64,000 bases of DNA from an uncultured bacterium. Lineage in GTDB: Bacteria; Bacteroidota; Bacteroidia; NS11-12g; UBA9320. The translations under genes were made by a program, and so were the position numbers. Shown piece by piece: positions 22,250 to 63,999 of this stretch. Numbering within the stretch: position 1 is the stretch's first letter; each line of letters begins with the position of its first letter. The stretch is from positions 116,546 through 180,545 of the forward strand of contig CAXDRX010000001.1 of assembly GCA_963991985.1 (NCBI GenBank). The letters are read 5' to 3'. The notes under the pieces are model-generated. The model worked only from the letters and a program-made list of their open reading frames with translations, did no database searches and was not told the origin of the DNA.

Positions 22250-23986
22250 TTAATTTATACTGGCCAAATTTTGTTTTGGGGGTTCAACACTTTCGTGGAT
22301 TTGATCTACGAAAATGCCCGACTTTTCAGACAACCATTGATTGTAAGACTTTTGATCTTCTACAATTACTTTTAATTTCATATTGAAATGGGCATTTCCA
22401 CAAATTTTATTACACACCAAATAGTAATCAAAGTCTTTGTTTTTCTTTTTTGAACGCATCTCCTTACTGGTAATTATAGGTGTAAAAGTAAATTCTGTAG
22501 GCAAACCAGGGACCACATTCATTTGCGTTCTAAAGTGGGCAAAATAAGCTGAATGAATAACATCTCTCGCTCTAAACTTCATGGTTACTGGCTTATTCAC
22601 TACGAGGTGAATTTCATCGTCTACCACAATATCGTCATTCCCTTTTTGATCATACATATTCCCCTCCTCAACTGCTAATGATTGATTGATTCTTTCGATT
22701 TGAACGTTTTTTCTTTTGATGGCTCTTCTATATTCACCAAGTTTTTCACCACTTTCCAAAGCCTTCATTTTCTCTTGGTGAGATTTTTGTTCTTCTCCCA
22801 TCAAACCTCCATAACTAGCCTTCAATTCTCCCAATTTTATGGGAATCTCTTGGATTTCTTTTTCTATCCCCTCAATTTCTTCCTGTAAAGTTTCAATCAA
22901 TAATTTGGCCTCTGTTCGATTGGCAATTCCCAACTCATTCGTAGAGGATATTAAATTGTAACTGGCCTTACCCAGCTGATTGTCTTCTCCTGGATAGCGG
23001 GCTTTCCAACCAAACTGATAGGCGAACAACTCAATCTTTTGGGTATTTTCCGTATCCACATAAACAATTTTTTGCCATGTCTGCAAACCCCTTGTCACCA
23101 AAAGCGTAAGGAAAATGGCTGGAATAATCGTCCAAACCAATTCCAGTTTATCATTAACAGGGTAATAAAGCGCCTTCTGGTTCGGTTTTTCTTGATATCG
23201 AAATGAGAAAAAGAATAGTAAGAATTGGGTAATAAAAAATACAATAGAGGTAATGATGAGAGTAGTGGTCATCATGTTGTCGATCCAAACTCCATGCTCA
23301 CTAGCTGCACTGCCGAGCAAAGTATATTTTCCATGAATGGTAAATTCATAAATGGTCAATCCAAACAATGCTGCAAGGAAGATTAGAAATAGATTGCCAT
23401 TCAATCTGTTCCATCGAATCAAATCTTTACCCAGCAGTTTGCTCACATTGTCCAAAATCTTAAAGAGCAGAATAATCATCGCCAACAGGGCAAGCAGAAT
23501 AAGCGCCAAGCCCCAACTAACCTTTTTTACCATCTCTTTGGAGGGAGCAGCAGAAACGGTCTCCGTCTTCCCTGTCCCACCTGAAGGTGATCCTCCACCT
23601 GCCGAAGCATCCTCAATATACATTACAATACTCCCAATTTCTTCGTCACTCAAGTTTTCAAAATTGTTCATTATTTGCGGCTTGTATTGTTCCCAAACCG
23701 CCAAGGCTTGTACATCGCCAGATTTGATCATTTTCTGACTATTTCTGATCCATTTTTTCAACCAATCAAAATCATATTTTTCATGAACATTTTTTAGCGC
23801 AGGACCAACCAATTTGTTGTTCAATGCGTGACAGGATGCGCATTTGCTGGCATATAACTTTTTTCCATTGGCGATGTAAGATTCAGAAATCTCAAAACCT
23901 GTAATAGTTTGGTCCAATGCCATAAGATTTGGCACTTCGAAAAAAAGACAAAAAAACAGAGTGAGGATCAGAGCAATTATTCTCAT
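22250..23986 (-). CDS. ctaC: Cytochrome c oxidase subunit II with N-terminal monoheme cytochrome c domain and an insertion in the CuA domain
   Basis: Signal peptide, CASCH...IM, four TM helices, ASEHG, KLELVWTIIP, YQFGW, DVIHS, CNKICGNAHFNM. Start 23986 is supported by the -7 element at 23998-24005. Confidence 0.95.
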   Translation of the reverse strand: MRIIALILTLFFCLFFEVPNLMALDQTITGFEISESYIANGKKLYASKCASCHALNNKLVGPALKNVHEKYDFDWLKKWIRNSQKMIKSGDVQALAVWEQYKPQIMNNFENLSDEEIGSIVMYIEDASAGGGSPSGGTGKTETVSAAPSKEMVKKVSWGLALILLALLAMIILLFKILDNVSKLLGKDLIRWNRLNGNLFLIFLAALFGLTIYEFTIHGKYTLLGSAASEHGVWIDNMMTTTLIITSIVFFITQFLLFFFSFRYQEKPNQKALYYPVNDKLELVWTIIPAIFLTLLVTRGLQTWQKIVYVDTENTQKIELFAYQFGWKARYPGEDNQLGKASYNLISSTNELGIANRTEAKLLIETLQEEIEGIEKEIQEIPIKLGELKASYGGLMGEEQKSHQEKMKALESGEKLGEYRRAIKRKNVQIERINQSLAVEEGNMYDQKGNDDIVVDDEIHLVVNKPVTMKFRARDVIHSAYFAHFRTQMNVVPGLPTEFTFTPIITSKEMRSKKKNKDFDYYLVCNKICGNAHFNMKLKVIVEDQKSYNQWLSEKSGIFVDQIHESVEPPKQNLASIN

Positions 23987-23997
23987 AAATGTTTGTA

Positions 23998-24005
23998 CAA
24001 ATTTA
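23998..24005 (-). promoter_or_regulatory. -7 promoter element TAAATTTG for the cox operon
   Basis: Exact TAnnTTTG 11 nt upstream of ATG 23986. Confidence 0.6.
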
Positions 24006-24146
24006 TCCATAGCACCACATTCGAAGCAAAAAAGATGAAAAAAAATTTTCCACAACAGAATTTAGAAAACGTTTAAATAAAATATGGTCACAAAAGGAGT
24101 TTTTTTCGGTACAACTAACTGAAAACCAAACGAATGTTAGTTGTTG

Positions 24147-55562: not shown

Positions 55563-56936
55563 TTACGGACCCACTTCGTGGTTGGCACTTTCCAAAACAA
55601 AAGGGTGATTTTTTGGATAAAGGTCTGCCTTAGACAAAGAATTTCTTACGATATAAGAGAAAAGACCAAAGAAAAATATGCCAAAACCTATTTCAATAAG
55701 TCCAATATTTGCTTTTTCCCCTACTACGCCTGGCATAACCATCAAATATATGTCCAGCCAGTGTCCGACCAAGATAAGTCCTCCACCAATCAGTGTGATG
55801 TATTTATTTCTTTTGGCATAACGAGCGATTAGAATCAAAAATGGCAAAAAGAAGTTCATTACAATATTGGCAACAAAAAATGGATAATATTTGCTCACCC
55901 ATCTTTCGTAGAAGTAAATACTTTCTTCAGGTAAATTTGCGTACCAAATCAGTAAAAATTGCGCCAACCATATGTAAGCCCAAAAAATAGAGAATCCGAA
56001 CATAAATTTAACCAAATCATCCAAAATTTCTTCATCAACCAAATTTAGATAACCTTGCCCTTTTAAAAACAAAACCAAAAAAGTAATCACCGTAACAGAA
56101 CTTACAAACATGATTGCAAAATTGTATACAGAAAATATTGTACTAAACCAGTGAGGATCAATACTCATCATTATGAGCCATGTAAATACAGAAAAAGTAA
56201 AAGCAAATATGACAATGAATGCTGCCGAGAAGCGGATAGATTTCTGAAAAAAAGAAATTCCACCTTCTACATCTTCTTTGAGCGATAATTTCCTGAGTGT
56301 GGTTCTTAAAGCAAACCAAATGGCAACAAAAATAATGGGTGCTATATACAACCAATTTTTATTTAAAAACCATGTTTTTCCATCCAGAAGTTTGTCTGCG
56401 GGCAACTCATTTTTGTGGTTATTGTAATAAAGCCATTCATAAAGGTGCTCACCTCCAAAATAGACTGCAATCATGAGCAAAACAAAACCGATAGGAATAA
56501 ATGCACTCATAGATTCAGCCACTCTTTTAATAAGCGTTGCCCACCCTGCATTTGCAACATAGTTGACCGCGACAAAAAACAAACCTCCTACAGCAAAAAG
56601 GAAAAAATAATACGCATTTACTAAGAAAGAGGCCCAAACACGACTAAGCCAACCTGTGGTATGATGCCCTTCGAGATGACTTTCTGAGTGGGTATGATGT
56701 TCTTCAAGGTCTTTGGAATGAGCATTCGAATGCGATAGGGATCCATCATGATGTTCAACGTGACTTCCTTGAATTTCTTCAACATTATGTTGTGAATGCC
56801 AAGATTTTTTTAATGTTGAAGCACCAATTCCTGCCAACAGTAAACCCAACAACATAATCAAGCCAGTTACAACACGACCTCTTTTTGAAAAAACATATTT
56901 TTCATTCGGTAATTCGGTAATATAGTGATGTCCCAT
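55563..56936 (-). CDS. actF: Alternative complex III subunit ActF
   Basis: NrfD-like polytopic protein, AGWA..IKRVAE, PHWFST, IWYAN.PEE; His-rich loop; last gene of the act cluster. Confidence 0.9.
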   Translation of the reverse strand: MGHHYITELPNEKYVFSKRGRVVTGLIMLLGLLLAGIGASTLKKSWHSQHNVEEIQGSHVEHHDGSLSHSNAHSKDLEEHHTHSESHLEGHHTTGWLSRVWASFLVNAYYFFLFAVGGLFFVAVNYVANAGWATLIKRVAESMSAFIPIGFVLLMIAVYFGGEHLYEWLYYNNHKNELPADKLLDGKTWFLNKNWLYIAPIIFVAIWFALRTTLRKLSLKEDVEGGISFFQKSIRFSAAFIVIFAFTFSVFTWLIMMSIDPHWFSTIFSVYNFAIMFVSSVTVITFLVLFLKGQGYLNLVDEEILDDLVKFMFGFSIFWAYIWLAQFLLIWYANLPEESIYFYERWVSKYYPFFVANIVMNFFLPFLILIARYAKRNKYITLIGGGLILVGHWLDIYLMVMPGVVGEKANIGLIEIGFGIFFFGLFSYIVRNSLSKADLYPKNHPFVLESANHEVGP

Positions 56937-56940
56937 ATTT

Positions 56941-57546
56941 TTATTTTTCTACATTAGGTTGATCGTACACAAACTCATCTCCTAGGCTTAAACTTCGAAC
57001 ATAATGAATGACTTTCCATCTCTCTGAAGGCGTAAGCATGTGAGCGTGAGAACCCATTAATCCTTTCCCATGTGTAATGGTATGATAGATTTTCCCATTA
57101 GGGAGTTCCTTTATGTATTGGCTTGTATATCCCTCCCAAGGTACACCAATGTAACCTTGTTTTACGACAGGACCATCATTGTTTCCATTTTTACCGTGGC
57201 AGTGCCAGCAATAAATCTCATATAGTTTTTTCCCTTGCGCAATATTTTCTTCCGTTTTTGGTATAGTGGACCTAAAAGTAGCAGCAGCCTCATAACCCTC
57301 CAAAGTATTTGGGTGAGGATATTGATAGTCCAACTGACCTTTTGCAATGGTTCCTTTTACTGGAAGTCTGGAGGACATCTTTTTCGGGTTATAAGACCAT
57401 CCTTCCTCCAACTGACTGTATGGTTCTGGTGTCTTTGAAATATACATATTAGGAGCATATTCATATCCTGGATGATTTCCTTTTGATGTACACCCTTGCC
57501 AAATAATAGTCAAAATTGAGATGATGTAAAGGAATGAATTATTCAT
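56941..57546 (-). CDS. actE: Alternative complex III monoheme cytochrome c lipoprotein ActE
   Basis: Lipobox WQGC, YAPNMY, CWHCH, ITHGKGLMG, ERW.VIHYV. Start moved to ATG 57546. Confidence 0.9.
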   Translation of the reverse strand: MNNSFLYIISILTIIWQGCTSKGNHPGYEYAPNMYISKTPEPYSQLEEGWSYNPKKMSSRLPVKGTIAKGQLDYQYPHPNTLEGYEAAATFRSTIPKTEENIAQGKKLYEIYCWHCHGKNGNNDGPVVKQGYIGVPWEGYTSQYIKELPNGKIYHTITHGKGLMGSHAHMLTPSERWKVIHYVRSLSLGDEFVYDQPNVEK

Positions 57547-58120
57547 CTTTTTTGGTTTTTTCTGTATTTCTTTCATAAAATTCAACTGCCCCTTCTTCCT
57601 TAATTAAGGCTTCAAATTCTTTTTTACTAATATTTAATTTTTGAGGTTCGACAGCGAGTACAAGTCTGTCATCTGTTTGGCGGATATCAATCAAATCTTC
57701 TTCAATACCATGAACCATTCTTGACCGAGCAAAAAATAAGATTCCCATACCAAAGGCAGTAAACAGTATCGTTAACTCAAATGTTACCGGCACAAAACTT
57801 GGTATTACTCGCCAATCCAATGGTTTTCCACCAATGATCATTGGCCAGCTTTTAAAAGTGCCAAAGGTATCGGTCATCGTATAGAGTTGTAAAGAAATTC
57901 CACACAAAAAACCAACCAAACCACAGAGAAACGCACCAAAAACTAATCTCGATCTTTTGACACCCATGGCCTTATCCAAATTGTGCACTGGGTAGGGTGT
58001 GTAACAGTCAAAAATCTCTATACCTCTTTCTCTCAGATTAACAACTGTTTGATACAACTTATCTCCATCGTTAAAAATACCGATAAGCAAATTTTTCTTT
58101 AGTATATTTTTTGCTGCCAT
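57539..58120 (-). CDS. actD: Alternative complex III subunit ActD (DUF3341)
   Basis: YTPYPVHNLD, WPMIIGGKP, PVTFE.TILF. Confidence 0.9.
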   Translation of the reverse strand: MAAKNILKKNLLIGIFNDGDKLYQTVVNLRERGIEIFDCYTPYPVHNLDKAMGVKRSRLVFGAFLCGLVGFLCGISLQLYTMTDTFGTFKSWPMIIGGKPLDWRVIPSFVPVTFELTILFTAFGMGILFFARSRMVHGIEEDLIDIRQTDDRLVLAVEPQKLNISKKEFEALIKEEGAVEFYERNTEKTKKDE

Positions 58121-58121
58121 A

Positions 58122-59468
58122 TTACTCTTTATCGTTGATTATACTCTTTACTTCTGCCATATTGATGATGGGCAGATATCTTAGAAATAAGAAAAAACAA
58201 GTGAAAAATAGGCCCAAAGTACCCAAGAACAGCGCGACCTCTGTAAATGTAGGCATATACAAGACCCAAGACGAGGGAAGATAGTCCCTATGAAGCGATG
58301 TTACAATGATAACAAATCGCTCAAACCACATCCCTATATTTACAACAATCGACATCATAAAAATGAACCATGGTGTTGTTCTAGACCACTTAAACCAAAA
58401 AACTTGGGGTGCAATTAAGTTACAAAACATCATCGTCCAATAAGCCCATGCAAAAGGGCCCGTGGCTCTGTTTAAAAATGCATATTGCTCATACTGAACC
58501 CCTGAATATTGAGCAATAAAAAATTCCGTTAGATACGCCAAACCAACCATTGACCCGGTTAGCATGATGACCTTTGTCATTGCATCCAAATGATTGATGG
58601 TGATGTAGTTTTCTAGGCTTAATATTTTTCGAGCAATCACCAATAGGGTGAGAACCATACCGAAGCCGGAAAAAATCGCACCTGCAACAAAATAGGGAGG
58701 GAATATGGTGGTATGCCAACCTGGGATCACTGAAGTTGCAAAATCAAAGGATACGATGGTATGAACAGACAAAACCAAAGGTGTAGAAATACCTGCCAAT
58801 ATTAGAGATACAATTTCGTATCGGTGCCAAGTGCGCGTTGATCCATTCCAACCCATGGAGAAAAAACCATAGACTGCTTTGCTAACCTTATTTTTTGCTC
58901 TGTCACGAATGGTGGCGATATCTGGGATAAGACCCAAATACCAAAACAGAAGGGAAACTGAAAAATATGTTGAAATAGCGAATACGTCCCAAAGAAGAGG
59001 TGAATTAAAATTCACCCAGAGTGAACCAAATGCGTTGGGCAAAGGAAGCACCCAATAAGCCAGCCATACTCTTCCCATATGAAACAAAGGATAAATAGCG
59101 GCGCATATTACGGCAAATATTGTCATTGCTTCTGCCGATCGATTGATCGCCATTCTCCACTTTTGTCTGAAGAGGAGCAGTATTGCCGATATGAGCGTAC
59201 CTGCATGTCCTATACCTACCCAAAATACGAAGTTTGTAATATCCCAAGCCCAAAAAACAGTTTTATTTACCCCCCATGTTCCAATACCAACCGTTACGGT
59301 ATTGTAAAGTGCCCATACCATCAGCATCAAAAAAAGGAAAGACACAGAGAAGCCCATCAACCAGCCTCGAGTCGTTTTACTTTCAACTGACTTCAACACG
59401 TCGTTTGTTACGTCCGCAATTTTTTTGTCTCCTTGAACAAGCTTATTTCTTATTTCTGCTATGTACAT
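58122..59468 (-). CDS. actC: Alternative complex III quinol-binding subunit ActC (NrfD/PsrC family)
   Basis: WAWDITNFVFWVGIGHAGTLISA, HMGR, SPLLWDVFA, PGWHTTIFPPYF, WFERFVI. Confidence 0.95.
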   Translation of the reverse strand: MYIAEIRNKLVQGDKKIADVTNDVLKSVESKTTRGWLMGFSVSFLFLMLMVWALYNTVTVGIGTWGVNKTVFWAWDITNFVFWVGIGHAGTLISAILLLFRQKWRMAINRSAEAMTIFAVICAAIYPLFHMGRVWLAYWVLPLPNAFGSLWVNFNSPLLWDVFAISTYFSVSLLFWYLGLIPDIATIRDRAKNKVSKAVYGFFSMGWNGSTRTWHRYEIVSLILAGISTPLVLSVHTIVSFDFATSVIPGWHTTIFPPYFVAGAIFSGFGMVLTLLVIARKILSLENYITINHLDAMTKVIMLTGSMVGLAYLTEFFIAQYSGVQYEQYAFLNRATGPFAWAYWTMMFCNLIAPQVFWFKWSRTTPWFIFMMSIVVNIGMWFERFVIIVTSLHRDYLPSSWVLYMPTFTEVALFLGTLGLFFTCFFLFLRYLPIINMAEVKSIINDKE

Positions 59469-59476
59469 TTTTTATG

Positions 59477-62400
59477 TTATGAGTGATGATTACTTTTCCC
59501 TTCCTCTTTTACGTTCCTTATTTTGGTCATATACATGATGGAGGGTTTCACGTCCAATTCTTCCAGTGCATGGTAAGACCTGTCATTTTCATAGAGTTTT
59601 GAAATTTTGCTCTCACGGTCATTTAAATCTCCAAAAACAATAGCACCGGTAGGGCAAGTCTGCGCACAAGCAGTCTTCACTTCATTTGATTTAAGTTTTC
59701 GGTTTTCTCTTTTGGCATTCAATTTGGTTTCTTGAATTCTTTGAACACAAAAGCTACATTTCTCCATCACACCTCGAGAACGAACTGTTACGTCTGGGTT
59801 GATAACCATTTTACCTAAGTCATTGTTAAAATAGAAATCGAATTTGTCGTTGTCGTAATATTTAAACCAATTGAATCTCCTCACTTTATACGGACAGTTG
59901 TTGGCACAATACTTTGTTCCCACGCAACGATTGTAAGTCATTTGATTCAATCCTTCTGAAGAGTGCGTTGTTGCCAAAACTGGACAAACCGTTTCACAAG
60001 GGGCATTGTCACAGTGCTGACACAACATGGGTTGATAGACCACTCGAACATTTTCATAATGAGATTGCTCTTTATTAATTTGACTTGTTTTTGCAATTTT
60101 CTTTTCCTCGGTGAGATATTCATCCTCGTGCGCAAAAGAATAGTAACGATCAATTCTGAGCCAAGTCATCTCACGACGTCTTATAATTTCATCTTTACCA
60201 ACAACAGGAACATTATTTTCAATACTGCAACTCACAACACATGCATGGCATCCGTTACACTTATTGAGGTCTATGGCCATGGCCCAATGATGCCCCTCTT
60301 TGTAGTCATGATTTCTCCACAGAGAGACCAAGTTGTGTTTGTGTTCGTTTCTTACTTTCGGGTTTGCCTTGTATTCGTCTATACTCGCTTCCCTTACAAT
60401 ATCTCGAGCCTCTATCGAATGATGGGTTTGTGTTTGCGCCATTTTCTGACGTTCCCCCGTTTTTTCTATCGAAACATTGGGTAGGGTGTATTTTTCTGAA
60501 GATTTTTTATGATTTACCAAAACATAGGCATTCGCCCCCAGATTGTTTAAATCATTTTGGGTTTTTGAAATGTGATTTCTACCATATCCTAGCGCAATAC
60601 CTATCGTTTGATTCGTTTGGCCTGGTTGAATATAGGCTGGCAATGTTATGCTTAGATTGCCCGTTGAAATTTTAACAATATCCCCCGTTGAAATTGATTT
60701 TTCATCTGCCAACAATTTGGAAATGGTTGCATAATTGTCCCAACAGATTTTGGAAACTGGATCTGGCATTTCATGAATCCATGGTGTTGGTGCATCACAG
60801 CCATCGCGCGGACCTACTTTTTGGTACAGGTTAAGCTCGAGATTGTTGTTGCCCAATTGCGTTTCTTGGGCAATCTTTTGAGCTTCTGATTCATAATTAA
60901 TGGAAAAAGAGACAGGTACACTAATTTCATTTTTTTCAAAAAAACCCTGTTCTATTGCTTCATTAAAATTGGAACGAATCCAAAATTTCTTTAGGTCTAG
61001 ATATGTTTTTGAAAAGCCTTCTTCGCCCAACACATTTTCACCACTCCAAGCCAAAAGTGACTCGTAAGCCTGTCTTGTATTAAACACTCTAGAAATTGTT
61101 GGCTGAGAAAAAACATAGCTTCCGTGGACCGGTTCAAAAACGTTCCAGGACTCAAGAAAATGATTGTCAGGACATACATAATCAAAATCCTTATTGGTTT
61201 CATCGAGATGCGTATGAATCGCAACTTTAAGCTCCACTTTAGAAATGAGCTTTTCTAATTCAGAACCAATAGGACTCGCATAAATAGGATTTGCATTTTT
61301 AACAATTAAAGCACCAATTTTATTGTTTTTTAAATCCTCAACAAATTGGTAAAATTTCTCCGAATCATACTTCGTGATGTTGGAATAATTTGTTAAATCA
61401 ATGGTTTCTCCATAACTGCCCAACATGTTATTAATTGCATTCACTATAATTTGATTTTCCACCAAATTAGAGCCGGATACTACAAGAGATTTTCCTTTGT
61501 TTCTCCAAAGAGATTTTGCTGCATTTTTAATCATTCCTCCGGCCACTTCGAGTTCATCCTTGATCGGCATTTGTCTCCATCCAGCCAATTTGGCAATTTC
61601 GTTGTGAAGTTTTATAAGATGCAAACCTTCTCTTGAGGCTTTGATGGGTAAACGATAGTCTGCATTCGAGCCAGTCATGGACAGGTTTGCTTCAAATTGA
61701 AAATGCTGATTCATATCACCCGCGTGATTTGGCGATTTAAATTCGGCATAATCTTGGGCATATTTGTTCGATTCGAGCCAAGTACCTAAAAAGTCGCAAT
61801 TAAAGGATGCTATTACTTTTGCTTTATCAAATCGGTAGCTTGGTATAACTCTTTTCCCAAAGGACTTTTCATTTGCCTTGAGCATACCTTGGTAAGAAAT
61901 CGCATCAAAAAGCACGTGCTCAACATTGTTATATCTATCCTTTATTTTTTCAATTGCTTTTCCATGGAGCAGGCTATTATCGGTATTAGAAAGAAAAATT
62001 ATTTTCTTTCCCTTGGTGGAAATGTTTTTTAGACCTTTCAAAATATTTTCATCAATTTTCTGCCAATCGCCGGTTACTAGCTTGCCCTCAATTCTTTCCA
62101 TAGGGCTCTCAATTCGGTTTGTGTCGTAAAGGGAAAGAAGAGATGAATGTGCATTTGCCAGAAGATTTCCACTTACGATCTTTGAATTTTTATTGGGTTC
62201 GAATTTTATCGGTCTTCCTTCTCGAGTTTTTACCAAAGCTGGAACAACTTGATTGTTCACTACAATAGCCGATGCATAATACAAGGCACTTGAGGGCGTT
62301 ATTTGCTCTGGCTTTTCTACGTAAGGCACCGCATACTTTACCGGAGTTTTGTTGCATGCTGCAAGCGTCACCGCACCCAAACTAAATCCAAAAATCTTGA

Positions 62401-62554
62401 GAAAATCTCTTCGATTGGTATTTAAGGCCTGGTCACCATCTATGGCTTGTTCAAGTGGTAAGCCTTCAAAAAACTCATTGCGTTTGTCTTGTTGAAATTC
62501 TGGAGAATTCTCTAGTTCTTCAATTCCTCTCCAATATTGTTGATTATTACCCAT
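59477..62554 (-). CDS. actB: Alternative complex III subunit ActB (molybdopterin-oxidoreductase-like plus Fe-S domain; Tat lipoprotein)
   Basis: YWRGIEEL, RRDFLK...LAAC, CNGCHAC, CQHCDNAPCETVCP, CVGTKYCANNCP, EKCSFC, CAQTCP. Confidence 0.95.
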   Translation of the reverse strand: MGNNQQYWRGIEELENSPEFQQDKRNEFFEGLPLEQAIDGDQALNTNRRDFLKIFGFSLGAVTLAACNKTPVKYAVPYVEKPEQITPSSALYYASAIVVNNQVVPALVKTREGRPIKFEPNKNSKIVSGNLLANAHSSLLSLYDTNRIESPMERIEGKLVTGDWQKIDENILKGLKNISTKGKKIIFLSNTDNSLLHGKAIEKIKDRYNNVEHVLFDAISYQGMLKANEKSFGKRVIPSYRFDKAKVIASFNCDFLGTWLESNKYAQDYAEFKSPNHAGDMNQHFQFEANLSMTGSNADYRLPIKASREGLHLIKLHNEIAKLAGWRQMPIKDELEVAGGMIKNAAKSLWRNKGKSLVVSGSNLVENQIIVNAINNMLGSYGETIDLTNYSNITKYDSEKFYQFVEDLKNNKIGALIVKNANPIYASPIGSELEKLISKVELKVAIHTHLDETNKDFDYVCPDNHFLESWNVFEPVHGSYVFSQPTISRVFNTRQAYESLLAWSGENVLGEEGFSKTYLDLKKFWIRSNFNEAIEQGFFEKNEISVPVSFSINYESEAQKIAQETQLGNNNLELNLYQKVGPRDGCDAPTPWIHEMPDPVSKICWDNYATISKLLADEKSISTGDIVKISTGNLSITLPAYIQPGQTNQTIGIALGYGRNHISKTQNDLNNLGANAYVLVNHKKSSEKYTLPNVSIEKTGERQKMAQTQTHHSIEARDIVREASIDEYKANPKVRNEHKHNLVSLWRNHDYKEGHHWAMAIDLNKCNGCHACVVSCSIENNVPVVGKDEIIRRREMTWLRIDRYYSFAHEDEYLTEEKKIAKTSQINKEQSHYENVRVVYQPMLCQHCDNAPCETVCPVLATTHSSEGLNQMTYNRCVGTKYCANNCPYKVRRFNWFKYYDNDKFDFYFNNDLGKMVINPDVTVRSRGVMEKCSFCVQRIQETKLNAKRENRKLKSNEVKTACAQTCPTGAIVFGDLNDRESKISKLYENDRSYHALEELDVKPSIMYMTKIRNVKEEGKSNHHS

Positions 62555-62563
62555 TTTTTTCTC

Positions 62564-63478
62564 TTAATAATGACACTTACTACACTCCAATCCACCATTT
62601 TGAGCTACGGTATAGAAGGCTTTTCCTTCCAACTTCATTTTTTTATGAATCTCCTCGTAGTAGTCGTTGTTTTTGGCATCAATACCACGCTGCCTATGGC
62701 AATTGATGCACCACCCCATTTGAAGATTACTGTATTGATATACCTTCTCCATTTCCTCAATTGGACCATGGCATAATTGACATTCTAAATTACCCACCTT
62801 AACATGTTGAGAGTGATTGAAATAAGCCAAATCGGGCAAATTATGTATTCTTACCCACTTTATTGGCTTTTGGTCATAGTCTTTGATGTATCGTGCTTGT
62901 TCAGCATCGTAGCCCACCGCATCATATATTTTTTGAATTTCTGGTGAAACTTCCCCATCGTATTTTTCTCTTGCTTGGACGCCTTTATGGCAGTTCATAC
63001 AGGTATTGGCGCTCGGAATGCTTGCAGACTTTGCATAGGAAGCAGTTGAATGGCAATATTGACATTCAATTTGAAGCTTTCCCGCATGTAAAGCGTGGCT
63101 ATATGCAATGGGCTGTTCAGGAGCATAACCTTTTTGGACACCCACTTTTTTGTTGGCAAAATTAAAAAACCAAGCCCCAAACAACAATATTAAAACCGTA
63201 CCAACAGAAAGAGAGGCAATAATTGGATTCCATTGGGACACTATGGGTTTTATTTTTGATTGAAAAAAAGAAGGTGAAGGAATCTCTCCCTCTTTTTCAT
63301 GGATGATTCTTTTTAGATTTTTATTGAGTACATTCAACAATAAAACCAACAAAACCATTACTCCTAAAAGAATAAGGAGAGAGGTATAGCTATTGGATGA
63401 ATAAAAGGCGGACTGAGCAAAAAGTACGTTTTGGGAAAGAAAAGTATATAGCGTGATTGAGAAGATTTTTTTTGACAT
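62564..63478 (-). CDS. actA: Alternative complex III pentaheme cytochrome ActA (no N-terminal monoheme domain)
   Basis: Five CxxCH: CQYCH, CMNCH, CQLCH, CINCH, CSKCH; QPIAYSH.LHAG; WVRIHNLPD; YFNHSQH. Start is ATG 63478 (track: TTG 63481). Confidence 0.95.
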   Translation of the reverse strand: MSKKIFSITLYTFLSQNVLFAQSAFYSSNSYTSLLILLGVMVLLVLLLNVLNKNLKRIIHEKEGEIPSPSFFQSKIKPIVSQWNPIIASLSVGTVLILLFGAWFFNFANKKVGVQKGYAPEQPIAYSHALHAGKLQIECQYCHSTASYAKSASIPSANTCMNCHKGVQAREKYDGEVSPEIQKIYDAVGYDAEQARYIKDYDQKPIKWVRIHNLPDLAYFNHSQHVKVGNLECQLCHGPIEEMEKVYQYSNLQMGWCINCHRQRGIDAKNNDYYEEIHKKMKLEGKAFYTVAQNGGLECSKCHY

Positions 63479-63507
63479 CAATGTATGGTCGAATCGTTAA
63501 CTCGAGG

Positions 63508-63515
63508 CAAATATA
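63508..63515 (-). promoter_or_regulatory. -7 promoter element TATATTTG for the act operon
   Basis: Exact TAnnTTTG 29 nt upstream of ATG 63478. Confidence 0.62.
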
Positions 63516-63561: not shown

Positions 63562-63999
63562 TTAGACGTTTTCTAAAGACTTAACTTCATCTTTCTTTCT
63601 TGTATCTACTAAAATTTGAACACACAAAATGTATAACGATACATAGGCAAAAAACAAGACGGAAGCCTCTATCAAACTTAAGCTCTTTAAAACAAAAAAA
63701 CCAAGCAAGATCGGAGCAATATTTAAGGAATACATGATGATGCTGACCTTGCTGTGCTTTTGTGAAACTTTTTTGAGCAAGATATGGTGCAAATGATTTT
63801 TGTCTGGACGGAATGGCGATTTGCCCAAATACAGACGGATTAAAAAGACTCGAAGAGTGTCAAAAATTGGGATAAAAAGGATAAGAATTGTCAAGAAAGG
63901 CAGGTTGGAAAAGCCTATTTCCAACAGTGAAATTTTGTTGTTTAAATTGAGAAACTTTAGGGCCATTATGCTTACAAAAAGACCCAAGATCATACTACC
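63562..63999 (-). CDS. MraY/WecA-family polyprenyl-phosphate N-acetylhexosamine-1-phosphate transferase, C-terminal part (enters from the right edge)
   Basis: GSMILG, IPIFDTLRVF..R...GKSPFRPDKNHLHH. Confidence 0.88.
   Translation of the reverse strand, partial: GSMILGLFVSIMALKFLNLNNKISLLEIGFSNLPFLTILILFIPIFDTLRVFLIRLYLGKSPFRPDKNHLHHILLKKVSQKHSKVSIIMYSLNIAPILLGFFVLKSLSLIEASVLFFAYVSLYILCVQILVDTRKKDEVKSLENV

Follow-up and report, generated by a model that had tools for sequence, protein, structure and literature searches.

Why should an ActA protein, a subunit of alternative complex III (ACIII), keep a signal peptide and a first transmembrane helix (TM1) when the monoheme cytochrome c domain that stands between these two elements in Flavobacterium is missing? 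This question is raised by the actA gene in a stretch of 64,000 nucleotides (hereafter the window) from an uncultured bacterium of the Bacteroidia (NS11-12g; UBA9320), i.e., positions 116,546 to 180,545 of contig CAXDRX010000001.1 in assembly GCA_963991985.1. We consider it probable that the window ActA is a six-heme ActA from which this domain has been deleted, and that an ActA-type shuttle domain is now carried by CtaC, subunit II of the oxidase. Loss of the domain from ActA is well supported, and its relocation to CtaC is supported less firmly. How electrons are handed over from ACIII to the oxidase remains a matter of debate. It has been proposed for F. johnsoniae that the N-terminal heme domain of ActA, which is unresolved, acts as a swinging shuttle; ActE proved dispensable there (PMC8552683).

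The window ActA has five heme-binding motifs and a short N-terminal stub

In the window, actA is the first gene of a complete actABCDEF operon that spans positions 55563-63481 on the minus strand. The features of the gene are as follows.

62564-63481, minus strand: actA open reading frame (ORF), with possible starts at 63481 (TTG) and 63478 (ATG); 304 amino acids when counted from the ATG
63416-63478, minus strand: signal peptide, residues 1-21 (MSKKIFSITLYTFLSQNVLFA), with n-, h- and c-regions and a signal peptidase I (SPase I) site predicted at A|Q, in agreement with the Bacteroidetes Q-rule
63383-63415, minus strand: uncharged periplasmic stub QSAFYSSNSYT, residues 22-32 (11 residues), with the putative deletion junction and the FYSxxT motif
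63323-63382, minus strand: TM1, residues 33-52, running from periplasm to cytoplasm; hydropathy 3.5, AlphaFold2 helix at residues 28-62 with a predicted local distance difference test score (pLDDT) of 79-88
63221-63322, minus strand: cytoplasmic loop, residues 53-86, with the motif P-S-F-(F/Y)...K-I-K-P...W-N-P
63158-63220, minus strand: second transmembrane helix (TM2), residues 87-107, running from cytoplasm to periplasm, by hydropathy and an AlphaFold2 helix at residues 85-110 (pLDDT 83-90)
62567-63157, minus strand: periplasmic pentaheme domain, residues 108-304, with five CxxCH, defined by sequence motifs and homology

The original prediction, made from the DNA alone, had described a protein of about 304 amino acids with exactly five CxxCH, in which a signal peptide, some 10 residues, TM1, a loop, TM2 and the pentaheme domain follow one another. 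Both statements were borne out, the former by the ORF and by the motif positions (C139, C160, C233, C257 and C299 in ATG numbering) and the latter by hydropathy and AlphaFold2, with a stub of 11 residues. The interval to which it had drawn attention, 63330-63478, was likewise correct and corresponds to residues 1-50, i.e., signal peptide, stub and TM1.

Assignment of the protein to the ActA family followed from the conserved spacing of its CxxCH motifs and from its matches in the PDB to 6BTM_A (E 1.8e-71), 8K9E_A (E 2.3e-31) and 6F0K_A (E 1.8e-29). Hydropathy, charge and AlphaFold2 all gave it an N-terminal membrane anchor and a periplasmic heme domain, to which heme attachment is predicted. 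The loop contains six K/R against three D/E, which fits the positive-inside rule, and its residues P69, W83, N84 and P85 are conserved across the clade of short ActA proteins to which the window belongs. Within the stub, F25 and Y26 were nearly invariant among 32 clade members. TM2 aligns with the anchor helices of 8K9E_A and 6F0K_A and is the counterpart of the single anchor helix in Rhodothermus and Roseiflexus ActA. The AlphaFold2 model showed a low-confidence break at residues 19-26, and the mean pLDDT of its heme domain was 58.

The signal peptide consists of MSKK, IFSITLYTFLSQNVL and FA|QS, with a small residue at -1 and Gln at +1, as in the Q-rule for Bacteroidetes SPase I signal peptides (PMC5837995), and cleavage is predicted between A21 and Q22. 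The AQS site is kept in the relative L097, and signal peptides ending in A/G/S|Q were also present in other relatives and in six-heme ActAs.

The anatomy of the window protein differs from that of a six-heme ActA at one place. The signal peptide and the two-helix hairpin of the six-heme type are both present, but a sixth CxxCH was not found in the protein, and just 11 residues separate the predicted cleavage site from TM1. When aligned with F. johnsoniae ActA (6BTM chain A, 444 amino acids), window residues 38-305 matched residues 175-444, and nothing earlier was matched; residues 55-144 of 6BTM_A form a class I cytochrome c domain. The sixth heme of F. johnsoniae ActA resides in an N-terminal mobile domain (PMC8552683). 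The two proteins are alike in their pentaheme domain, two-helix hairpin, operon and kind of signal peptide; the window ActA is, however, approximately 120-140 residues shorter between signal peptide and TM1, and has five hemes rather than six.

An alignment of N-termini showed that the signal peptide, (S)FYSxxT, TM1, the loop and TM2 are common to short and six-heme relatives. Between the signal peptide and FYSxxT, the six-heme relatives carry a cytochrome c domain of approximately 90 amino acids and a linker of 20-35 amino acids rich in Ala, Pro, Gly and Thr, whereas short ActAs have nothing between the cleavage site and FYSxxT. As judged from these alignments, it is well supported that this gap is the footprint of a clean in-frame deletion. 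The proposal that the window ActA has the Flavobacterium layout minus the monoheme domain and its linker was thus confirmed by both the N-terminal alignment and the 6BTM_A match.

The stub and TM1 are translated

Public gene calls for the window ActA and for a relative with 88% identity (P0002 and P0003) are 264 amino acids long and start at M42, in the middle of TM1. If these calls were right, ActA would be a single-helix protein, and what we call signal peptide and TM1 would be no more than an untranslated leader. To this disfavoured explanation, which has the choice made by the gene callers on its side, we give almost no credence. Codon by codon comparison with the DNA of the 88% relative, L097, revealed 16 synonymous and five non-synonymous differences in codons 23-53, with 16 of 24 changes at third positions and neither an indel nor a stop. 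In addition, the FYS motif and TM1 are conserved in more than 100 homologues as well as in six-heme ActAs, and the window has no in-frame start codon from codon 2 up to codon 42. The public call from M42 is too short, and the coding pattern indicates that the stub and TM1 are translated and constrained rather than part of a leader.

Two features upstream of this region bear on where translation begins.

63476-63481, minus strand: TTG-ATG start region; the TTG (63479-63481) is kept in L097, in which the ATG is an ATA
63508-63515, minus strand: candidate promoter box of the Bacteroidota -7 type (TATATTTG), placed 30 nt before the ATG; a consensus match only

At the position of the ATG, L097 has ATA, whereas it keeps the TTG, at which translation of ActA may therefore really begin. 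The block CTTGGTATATTTGCCTCG is also conserved in L097, and the remaining spacer has diverged, with low identity and an indel. Conservation of the promoter-like box upstream of TTG/ATG is a further point against a start at M42. The preceding ORF ends at 63562, leaving a gap of 80 nt, and contains no CxxCH. This is in keeping with the claim that no ORF for a split monoheme domain lies upstream of actA; the label "WecA-like" for the ORF ending at 63562 was left unconfirmed (a 145-amino-acid fragment with no Pfam match).

Codons 1-22 behaved differently from those of the stub and TM1. Here, the frame and AQS were kept in L097, with three synonymous and 11 non-synonymous differences, i.e., fast change. 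This bears on another interpretation, in which the first hydrophobic segment is not cleaved and remains in the membrane as an additional helix, giving a three-helix ActA with a cytoplasmic N-terminus. The topology is equally consistent with such an arrangement, cleavage is only predicted, and AlphaFold2 renders residues 2-20 helical. Nevertheless, the h-region (residues 5-19) is weakly hydrophobic, with a maximum 15-residue hydropathy of 1.08, low against values of 3.5 (TM1) and 2.3; S, T, Q and N occur within the segment, several clade members lack it or have it only in truncated form, and it evolves fast, yet its conserved A|Q-S site fits the Q-rule. Moreover, the homologous segment of six-heme ActAs must be cleaved or export the cytochrome domain. 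A retained third helix is thus decidedly unlikely, and a cleaved signal peptide is the reading that we carry forward.

Short ActA proteins are nested among six- and seven-heme forms

In order to place the window protein among its relatives, we searched a database of 5.8 billion proteins for ActA homologues. The best 120 were all short (261-337 amino acids), 119 of them with five hemes and one with four, and at 50% clustering the short homologues formed essentially one cluster. Among the best 150 representatives of 50%-identity clusters, by comparison, 82 had six hemes and 15 had seven. A maximum-likelihood (ML) tree was built from TM2 and the pentaheme domain (80 rows, 225 columns) and rooted on single-helix ActAs. 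The window fell, as the first branch, in a clade in which 15 of 15 members were short, five-heme proteins (ultrafast bootstrap (UFBoot) 99, SH-aLRT 92; support values are given in this order hereafter). The sister group comprised nine six/seven-heme ActAs (100/97), the joint node having support of 97/86. Next out came a group of four, of which three have six hemes and one is short, and the 28 rows up to this point (99/99) sat jointly within a mostly six-heme radiation. Across the ML tree, short ActA had at least four independent origins.

Because the short clade is nested among six/seven-heme ActAs, the loss of the domain appears to be derived, ancient within the clade and recurrent elsewhere. 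The claim of an in-frame domain loss, as opposed to an ancestral state, was thereby upheld at three successive supported nodes, and the tree indicates that the loss is old and clade-wide rather than special to the window genome. The reverse history, in which a short two-helix ActA was ancestral and Flavobacterium-type lineages acquired the monoheme domain by a later insertion, has in its favour that Rhodothermus and Chloroflexota ActAs have five hemes. These outgroup ActAs, however, possess a single helix and no signal peptide, and the short clade lies three supported nodes deep among the six/seven-heme forms. Several homologous domains would have had to be inserted independently at the identical point, the junction of signal peptide and FYS. 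Nor would this history offer any function-first explanation for a signal peptide without cargo and an extra helix, in a clade in which some relatives are losing the signal peptide. We therefore disfavour it as highly improbable, and take domain loss as the basis for what follows.

The short clade also shows variation in the signal peptide itself. In three loci (L005:9991-10030, L020:5904 and L063:5982), an in-frame stop lies three to four codons before MS(G/S)xFYSNST and the protein begins near FYS; in P0019, the signal peptide is truncated. Since some clade members have lost the signal peptide while TM1, FYS and the loop are conserved, it may be regarded as a dispensable vestige, and these sequences suggest its stepwise decay in the short clade.

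Other ActAs depart from the common layouts. Three five-heme proteins (P0206, P0216 and P0213) have a heme-less segment of approximately 70 residues between signal peptide and TM1, which could be a degenerate remnant of the monoheme domain or a replacement for it. In seven-heme ActAs (P0177 at L041:5811-7545, P0218, P0251, P0185, P0232 and P0236), the monoheme domain is present twice in tandem. Both copies from a given seven-heme ActA pair together in domain trees, which suggests several independent, recent tandem duplications.

CtaC carries an ActA-type cytochrome c domain at its N-terminus

The gene for subunit II of the oxidase, ctaC, lies at 22250-24055 on the minus strand of the window, and its 5' part encodes the following module.

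23516-24010, minus strand: N-terminal module of CtaC, in which a signal peptide is followed by a class I cytochrome c domain of the ActA type, with the motif CASCH, and by a linker of Gly, Ser and Pro

Beyond the linker, CtaC continues with four helices, the first of which begins in the periplasm, and then with the CuA domain. The unfused CtaC of Tamlana (355 amino acids) opens with a helix that aligns to residue 187 of window CtaC, and the two proteins align only from that residue on. Given that Tamlana CtaC starts at the aligned helix, and that the topology fits, CtaC appears to have gained only the signal peptide, the domain and the linker. A cytochrome c domain in the position found in caa3 subunit IIc was not detected in window CtaC, whose single CxxCH is at residue 72, before the membrane helices, and whose C-terminus ends after CuA.

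Apart from the five motifs of ActA, the only CxxCH strings in window ORFs of at least 80 codons were those of ActE (CWHCH), CtaC (CASCH) and ActB (CNGCH), the last of which forms part of an Fe-S motif and is thus not heme-type. Since only ActE and CtaC add heme-type motifs, the earlier count of 5 + 1 + 1 = 7 is right; its equality with the Flavobacterium total, which had been offered as evidence for relocation, carries no weight alone.

Homology searches showed the CtaC domain to be of the ActA type. In a search of proteins of 330-1050 amino acids, CtaC fusions came first, followed by six-heme ActAs with 38-51% identity (E 1e-22 to 1e-13). In the PDB, the best match was the N-domain of 6BTM_A (E 5e-20), ahead of the Sco-fused cytochrome 2L4D (E 1e-11), a cytochrome c555 (1e-9) and a free cytochrome c of R. 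marinus (3CP5; 6e-6 to 7e-7). In a domain tree, the CtaC N-domains fell inside a cluster of ActA N-domains (100/98), far from ActE. The mean similarity of the main CtaC clade was highest to the two six-heme groups nearest the short clade, at 49% (score 236) and 46% (score 227), compared with 41% (score 177) for other ActAs and a score of 60 for ActE. This is the pattern that would be expected if the domain came from an ActA of this lineage.

Among the best 120 CtaC homologues, 118 were fused. Two candidates for an unfused close CtaC did not stand up: P0434, which is cut by the contig end, was rejected, and P0433, which comes from a 3.2-kb contig and begins within the same helix, is probably truncated as well.

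A second kind of N-terminally fused CtaC was also found, in P0442 (L089:10001-11491), P0437 and P0440. These proteins are approximately 495 amino acids long and are without the long helical insert seen in the window (22640-22925, CtaC residues ~378-470), where a long charged helical insertion lies inside the CuA domain, as compared with Tamlana CtaC; the latter has a different insertion, closer to its C-terminus. At 59% identity, the N-domain of the second kind resembles those that ActA carries in the P0176/L048/L028 group. Closest to P0176 among ActAs is another short one, P0183 (L088:414-1403); P0442 and P0183 are from different samples. As far as can be judged from these sequences, the second kind may represent an independent relocation.

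Short ActA and fused CtaC occur together

We next scanned genome contigs with a chimeric ActA+CtaC alignment; the patterns came from ActA only, and the extent of the match separated six-heme from five-heme loci. A short ActA and a fused CtaC were found in the same assembly in all five of the cases that could be placed, the two genes being tied to one assembly by contigs of equal length or by shared record names.

Case 1: the window itself
Case 2: a 979,151-bp JGI contig, with P0037 and P0344
Case 3: JAGYJG010000001.1 (2.4 Mb), with ActA at 1.28 Mb and CtaC at 0.53 Mb
Case 4: JAGDZU010000001.1
Case 5: GCA_020635455.1

In Tamlana (L096:10001-21293), by contrast, a six-heme actA, actBCDEF, an unfused ctaC directly downstream of actF, and ctaD form one string, and in F. 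johnsoniae a six-heme ActA occurs with an aa3 oxidase (PMC8552683). The act and cta genes of the short clade are unlinked, being 31 kb apart in the window and approximately 750 kb apart on single contigs in two relatives, and no cta gene lay within the 10-kb flanks of act in this clade. The suspicion that close relatives might have a short ActA and no CtaC fusion came out the opposite way, as close relatives were both short and fused. Together with the ActA-type domain of CtaC and the unfused CtaC of Tamlana, this agrees with the proposed reciprocal gain by CtaC, which is nonetheless less firm than the loss from ActA.

Several points weigh against a transfer from ActA to CtaC. The co-occurrence lists were centred on the window proteins, such that a genome with short ActA and unfused CtaC would escape; because of this one-sided sampling, complementarity is supported, not proven. 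The census of heme motifs and of ActA covered the 64-kb window, and cleavage of the ActA signal peptide is itself a prediction. In the six-heme sister lineage (including L098), too, cta was not found within the 10-kb flanks of act. The search for CtaC-domain homologues covered proteins of 330-1050 amino acids, with the PDB as the only control for free-standing small cytochromes c. The domain tree (107 columns) has a backbone polytomy, in which the main CtaC clade is unplaced relative to particular ActA lineages. Finally, ActA and CtaC have separate signal peptides and no common flanking sequence, and thus no physical trace of a transfer is left.

These considerations leave room for a purely functional link, in which CtaC recruited a cytochrome c of the same subfamily from elsewhere, and the ActA domain then became redundant and was lost. 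The polytomy, the separate signal peptides and the restricted size range would all suit such a history, as would an extra segment of approximately 15 residues (ITESxTG..VSE) that precedes the domain in CtaC, and the existence of related domains elsewhere, both Sco-fused (2L4D) and free in R. marinus (3CP5). It is at odds, however, with the nesting of CtaC N-domains in the ActA N-domain cluster, with their greatest similarity being to the ActA lineages nearest the short clade, and with a best PDB match to an ActA N-domain by eight orders of magnitude. It also does not account for the specific pairing of the second kind of CtaC with the ActA N-domain of P0176 (100/91), whose nearest relative is short as well. 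On balance, we regard independent recruitment as unlikely, and descent of the CtaC domain from an ActA domain as the better explanation.

Proposed history and electron path

The following history would account for these observations. An ancestral ActA would have had a Sec signal peptide, a mobile monoheme domain, an Ala/Pro/Gly linker, FYSxxT, TM1, the loop, TM2 and the pentaheme domain. In the ancestor of a large uncultured clade of aquatic Bacteroidia, an in-frame deletion would have taken only the cytochrome c domain and its linker. Topology would have been kept, with the signal peptide starting export, an 11-residue tail staying in the periplasm after cleavage at A21|Q22, and the five-heme wire kept at its periplasmic place by the TM1-TM2 hairpin. 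Both the signal peptide and TM1 would thus be vestiges of a lost N-terminal cargo. Because neither ActA nor CtaC lacks a signal peptide, it is likely that the actA 5' module was first duplicated onto ctaC and that actA lost the domain by deletion afterwards.

From menaquinol, electrons would then pass to the [3Fe-4S] cluster of ActB, ActA hemes 1-5, the heme of ActE, the CtaC-tethered cytochrome c domain and CuA, reaching heme a/a3 last. In F. johnsoniae, the shuttle is anchored on ACIII; here it would be anchored on the oxidase, making the latter functionally caa3-like, with its cytochrome c at the opposite end of subunit II and of different origin.

We also considered whether the monoheme domain hopped from ActA to CtaC more than once in Bacteroidota, leaving the same signal-peptide-TM1 stub each time. 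Hints of this came from the at least four ActA losses, from the distribution of CtaC N-domains over at least three groups, two of which have partners among the ActA N-domains of certain lineages (100/91 and 97/87), and from an approximately unbiased (AU) test of a single origin (p 0.044). Repeated hops are possible, although we hold the idea only tentatively. If it is true, the anchoring side of the shuttle would be freely interchangeable in evolution, and TM1 would have been retained because it is needed structurally, either within ACIII or where ACIII meets the oxidase.

Comparison with known ACIII-oxidase systems

The F. johnsoniae oxidase is an aa3 enzyme without heme c (PMC8552683), whereas it is CtaC that carries the cytochrome c domain in the window. 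Rhodothermus marinus (6F0K) resembles the window in having a five-heme ActA and an oxidase subunit II that tethers a cytochrome c, with the same logic of direct electron transfer from ACIII to a caa3 oxidase (PMC5928083). Its ActA, however, is of the outgroup type, with one N-terminal helix and neither a signal peptide nor TM1, and the cytochrome c of its subunit IIc is C-terminal, as opposed to the N-terminal, ActA-type domain of window CtaC. The photosynthetic ActAs of Roseiflexus castenholzii and Chloroflexus (8K9E, 6LOD) share the pentaheme domain with a membrane anchor (PMC7439408), but have a single anchor helix, auracyanin as acceptor and no oxidase-tethered cytochrome.

Sousa et al. 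noted that, in F. johnsoniae, the extra domain of ActA seems to stand in for the cytochrome c domain that caa3 oxidases have on subunit IIc (PMC5928083). The window clade shows the converse swap, with an ActA-type domain on the N-terminus of subunit II. Our literature search returned no description of an N-terminally fused CtaC or of a stub ActA. Three arrangements can now be set side by side: in Flavobacterium the domain is on ActA, in the caa3 oxidase of Rhodothermus a cytochrome c forms the C-terminal part of subunit II, and in this clade subunit II has an ActA-type domain as its N-terminal part. The clade amounts to a natural experiment, in which the same domain appears to have been removed from ACIII and attached to oxidase subunit II instead. 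This supports the notion that the domain's job is the final hop from ACIII to the oxidase, for which proximity, and not the side of attachment, would matter.

In public annotation, these proteins are described only as "cytochrome c3 family" or "c-type cytochrome". Because the gene calls are truncated and the labels generic, metabolic reconstructions of abundant marine Bacteroidia would miscount hemes and miss a caa3-like oxidase. The arrangement is a clade-wide variant of a known ACIII system rather than a peculiarity of one genome.

Other genes of the act operon

Downstream of actA, the operon contains the following genes.

59477-62554, minus strand: actB, Fe-S protein (Pfam Fer4)
58122-59468, minus strand: actC (Pfam NrfD)
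57539-58120, minus strand: actD (PF11821)
56941-57585, minus strand: actE, monoheme protein (Pfam Cytochrome_CBB3)
55563-56936, minus strand: actF, a 457-amino-acid polytopic protein

The actD and actE ORFs overlap by 47 nt (57539-57585) if actE starts at its first TTG. To judge by its sequence, a start at the later Met, that of MNNSFLYIISILTIIWQGC, is more likely for ActE; MNNSFLYIISILTIIWQGC has a lipobox-like Cys. A lipid anchor has been reported for ActE, with which this Cys agrees. In a Flavobacteriales metagenome-assembled genome with a short ActA (GCA_020635435.1; L005:15910-16986), ActE has 358 amino acids, and its cytochrome c domain is followed at the C-terminus by an OmpA-like domain (PF00691).

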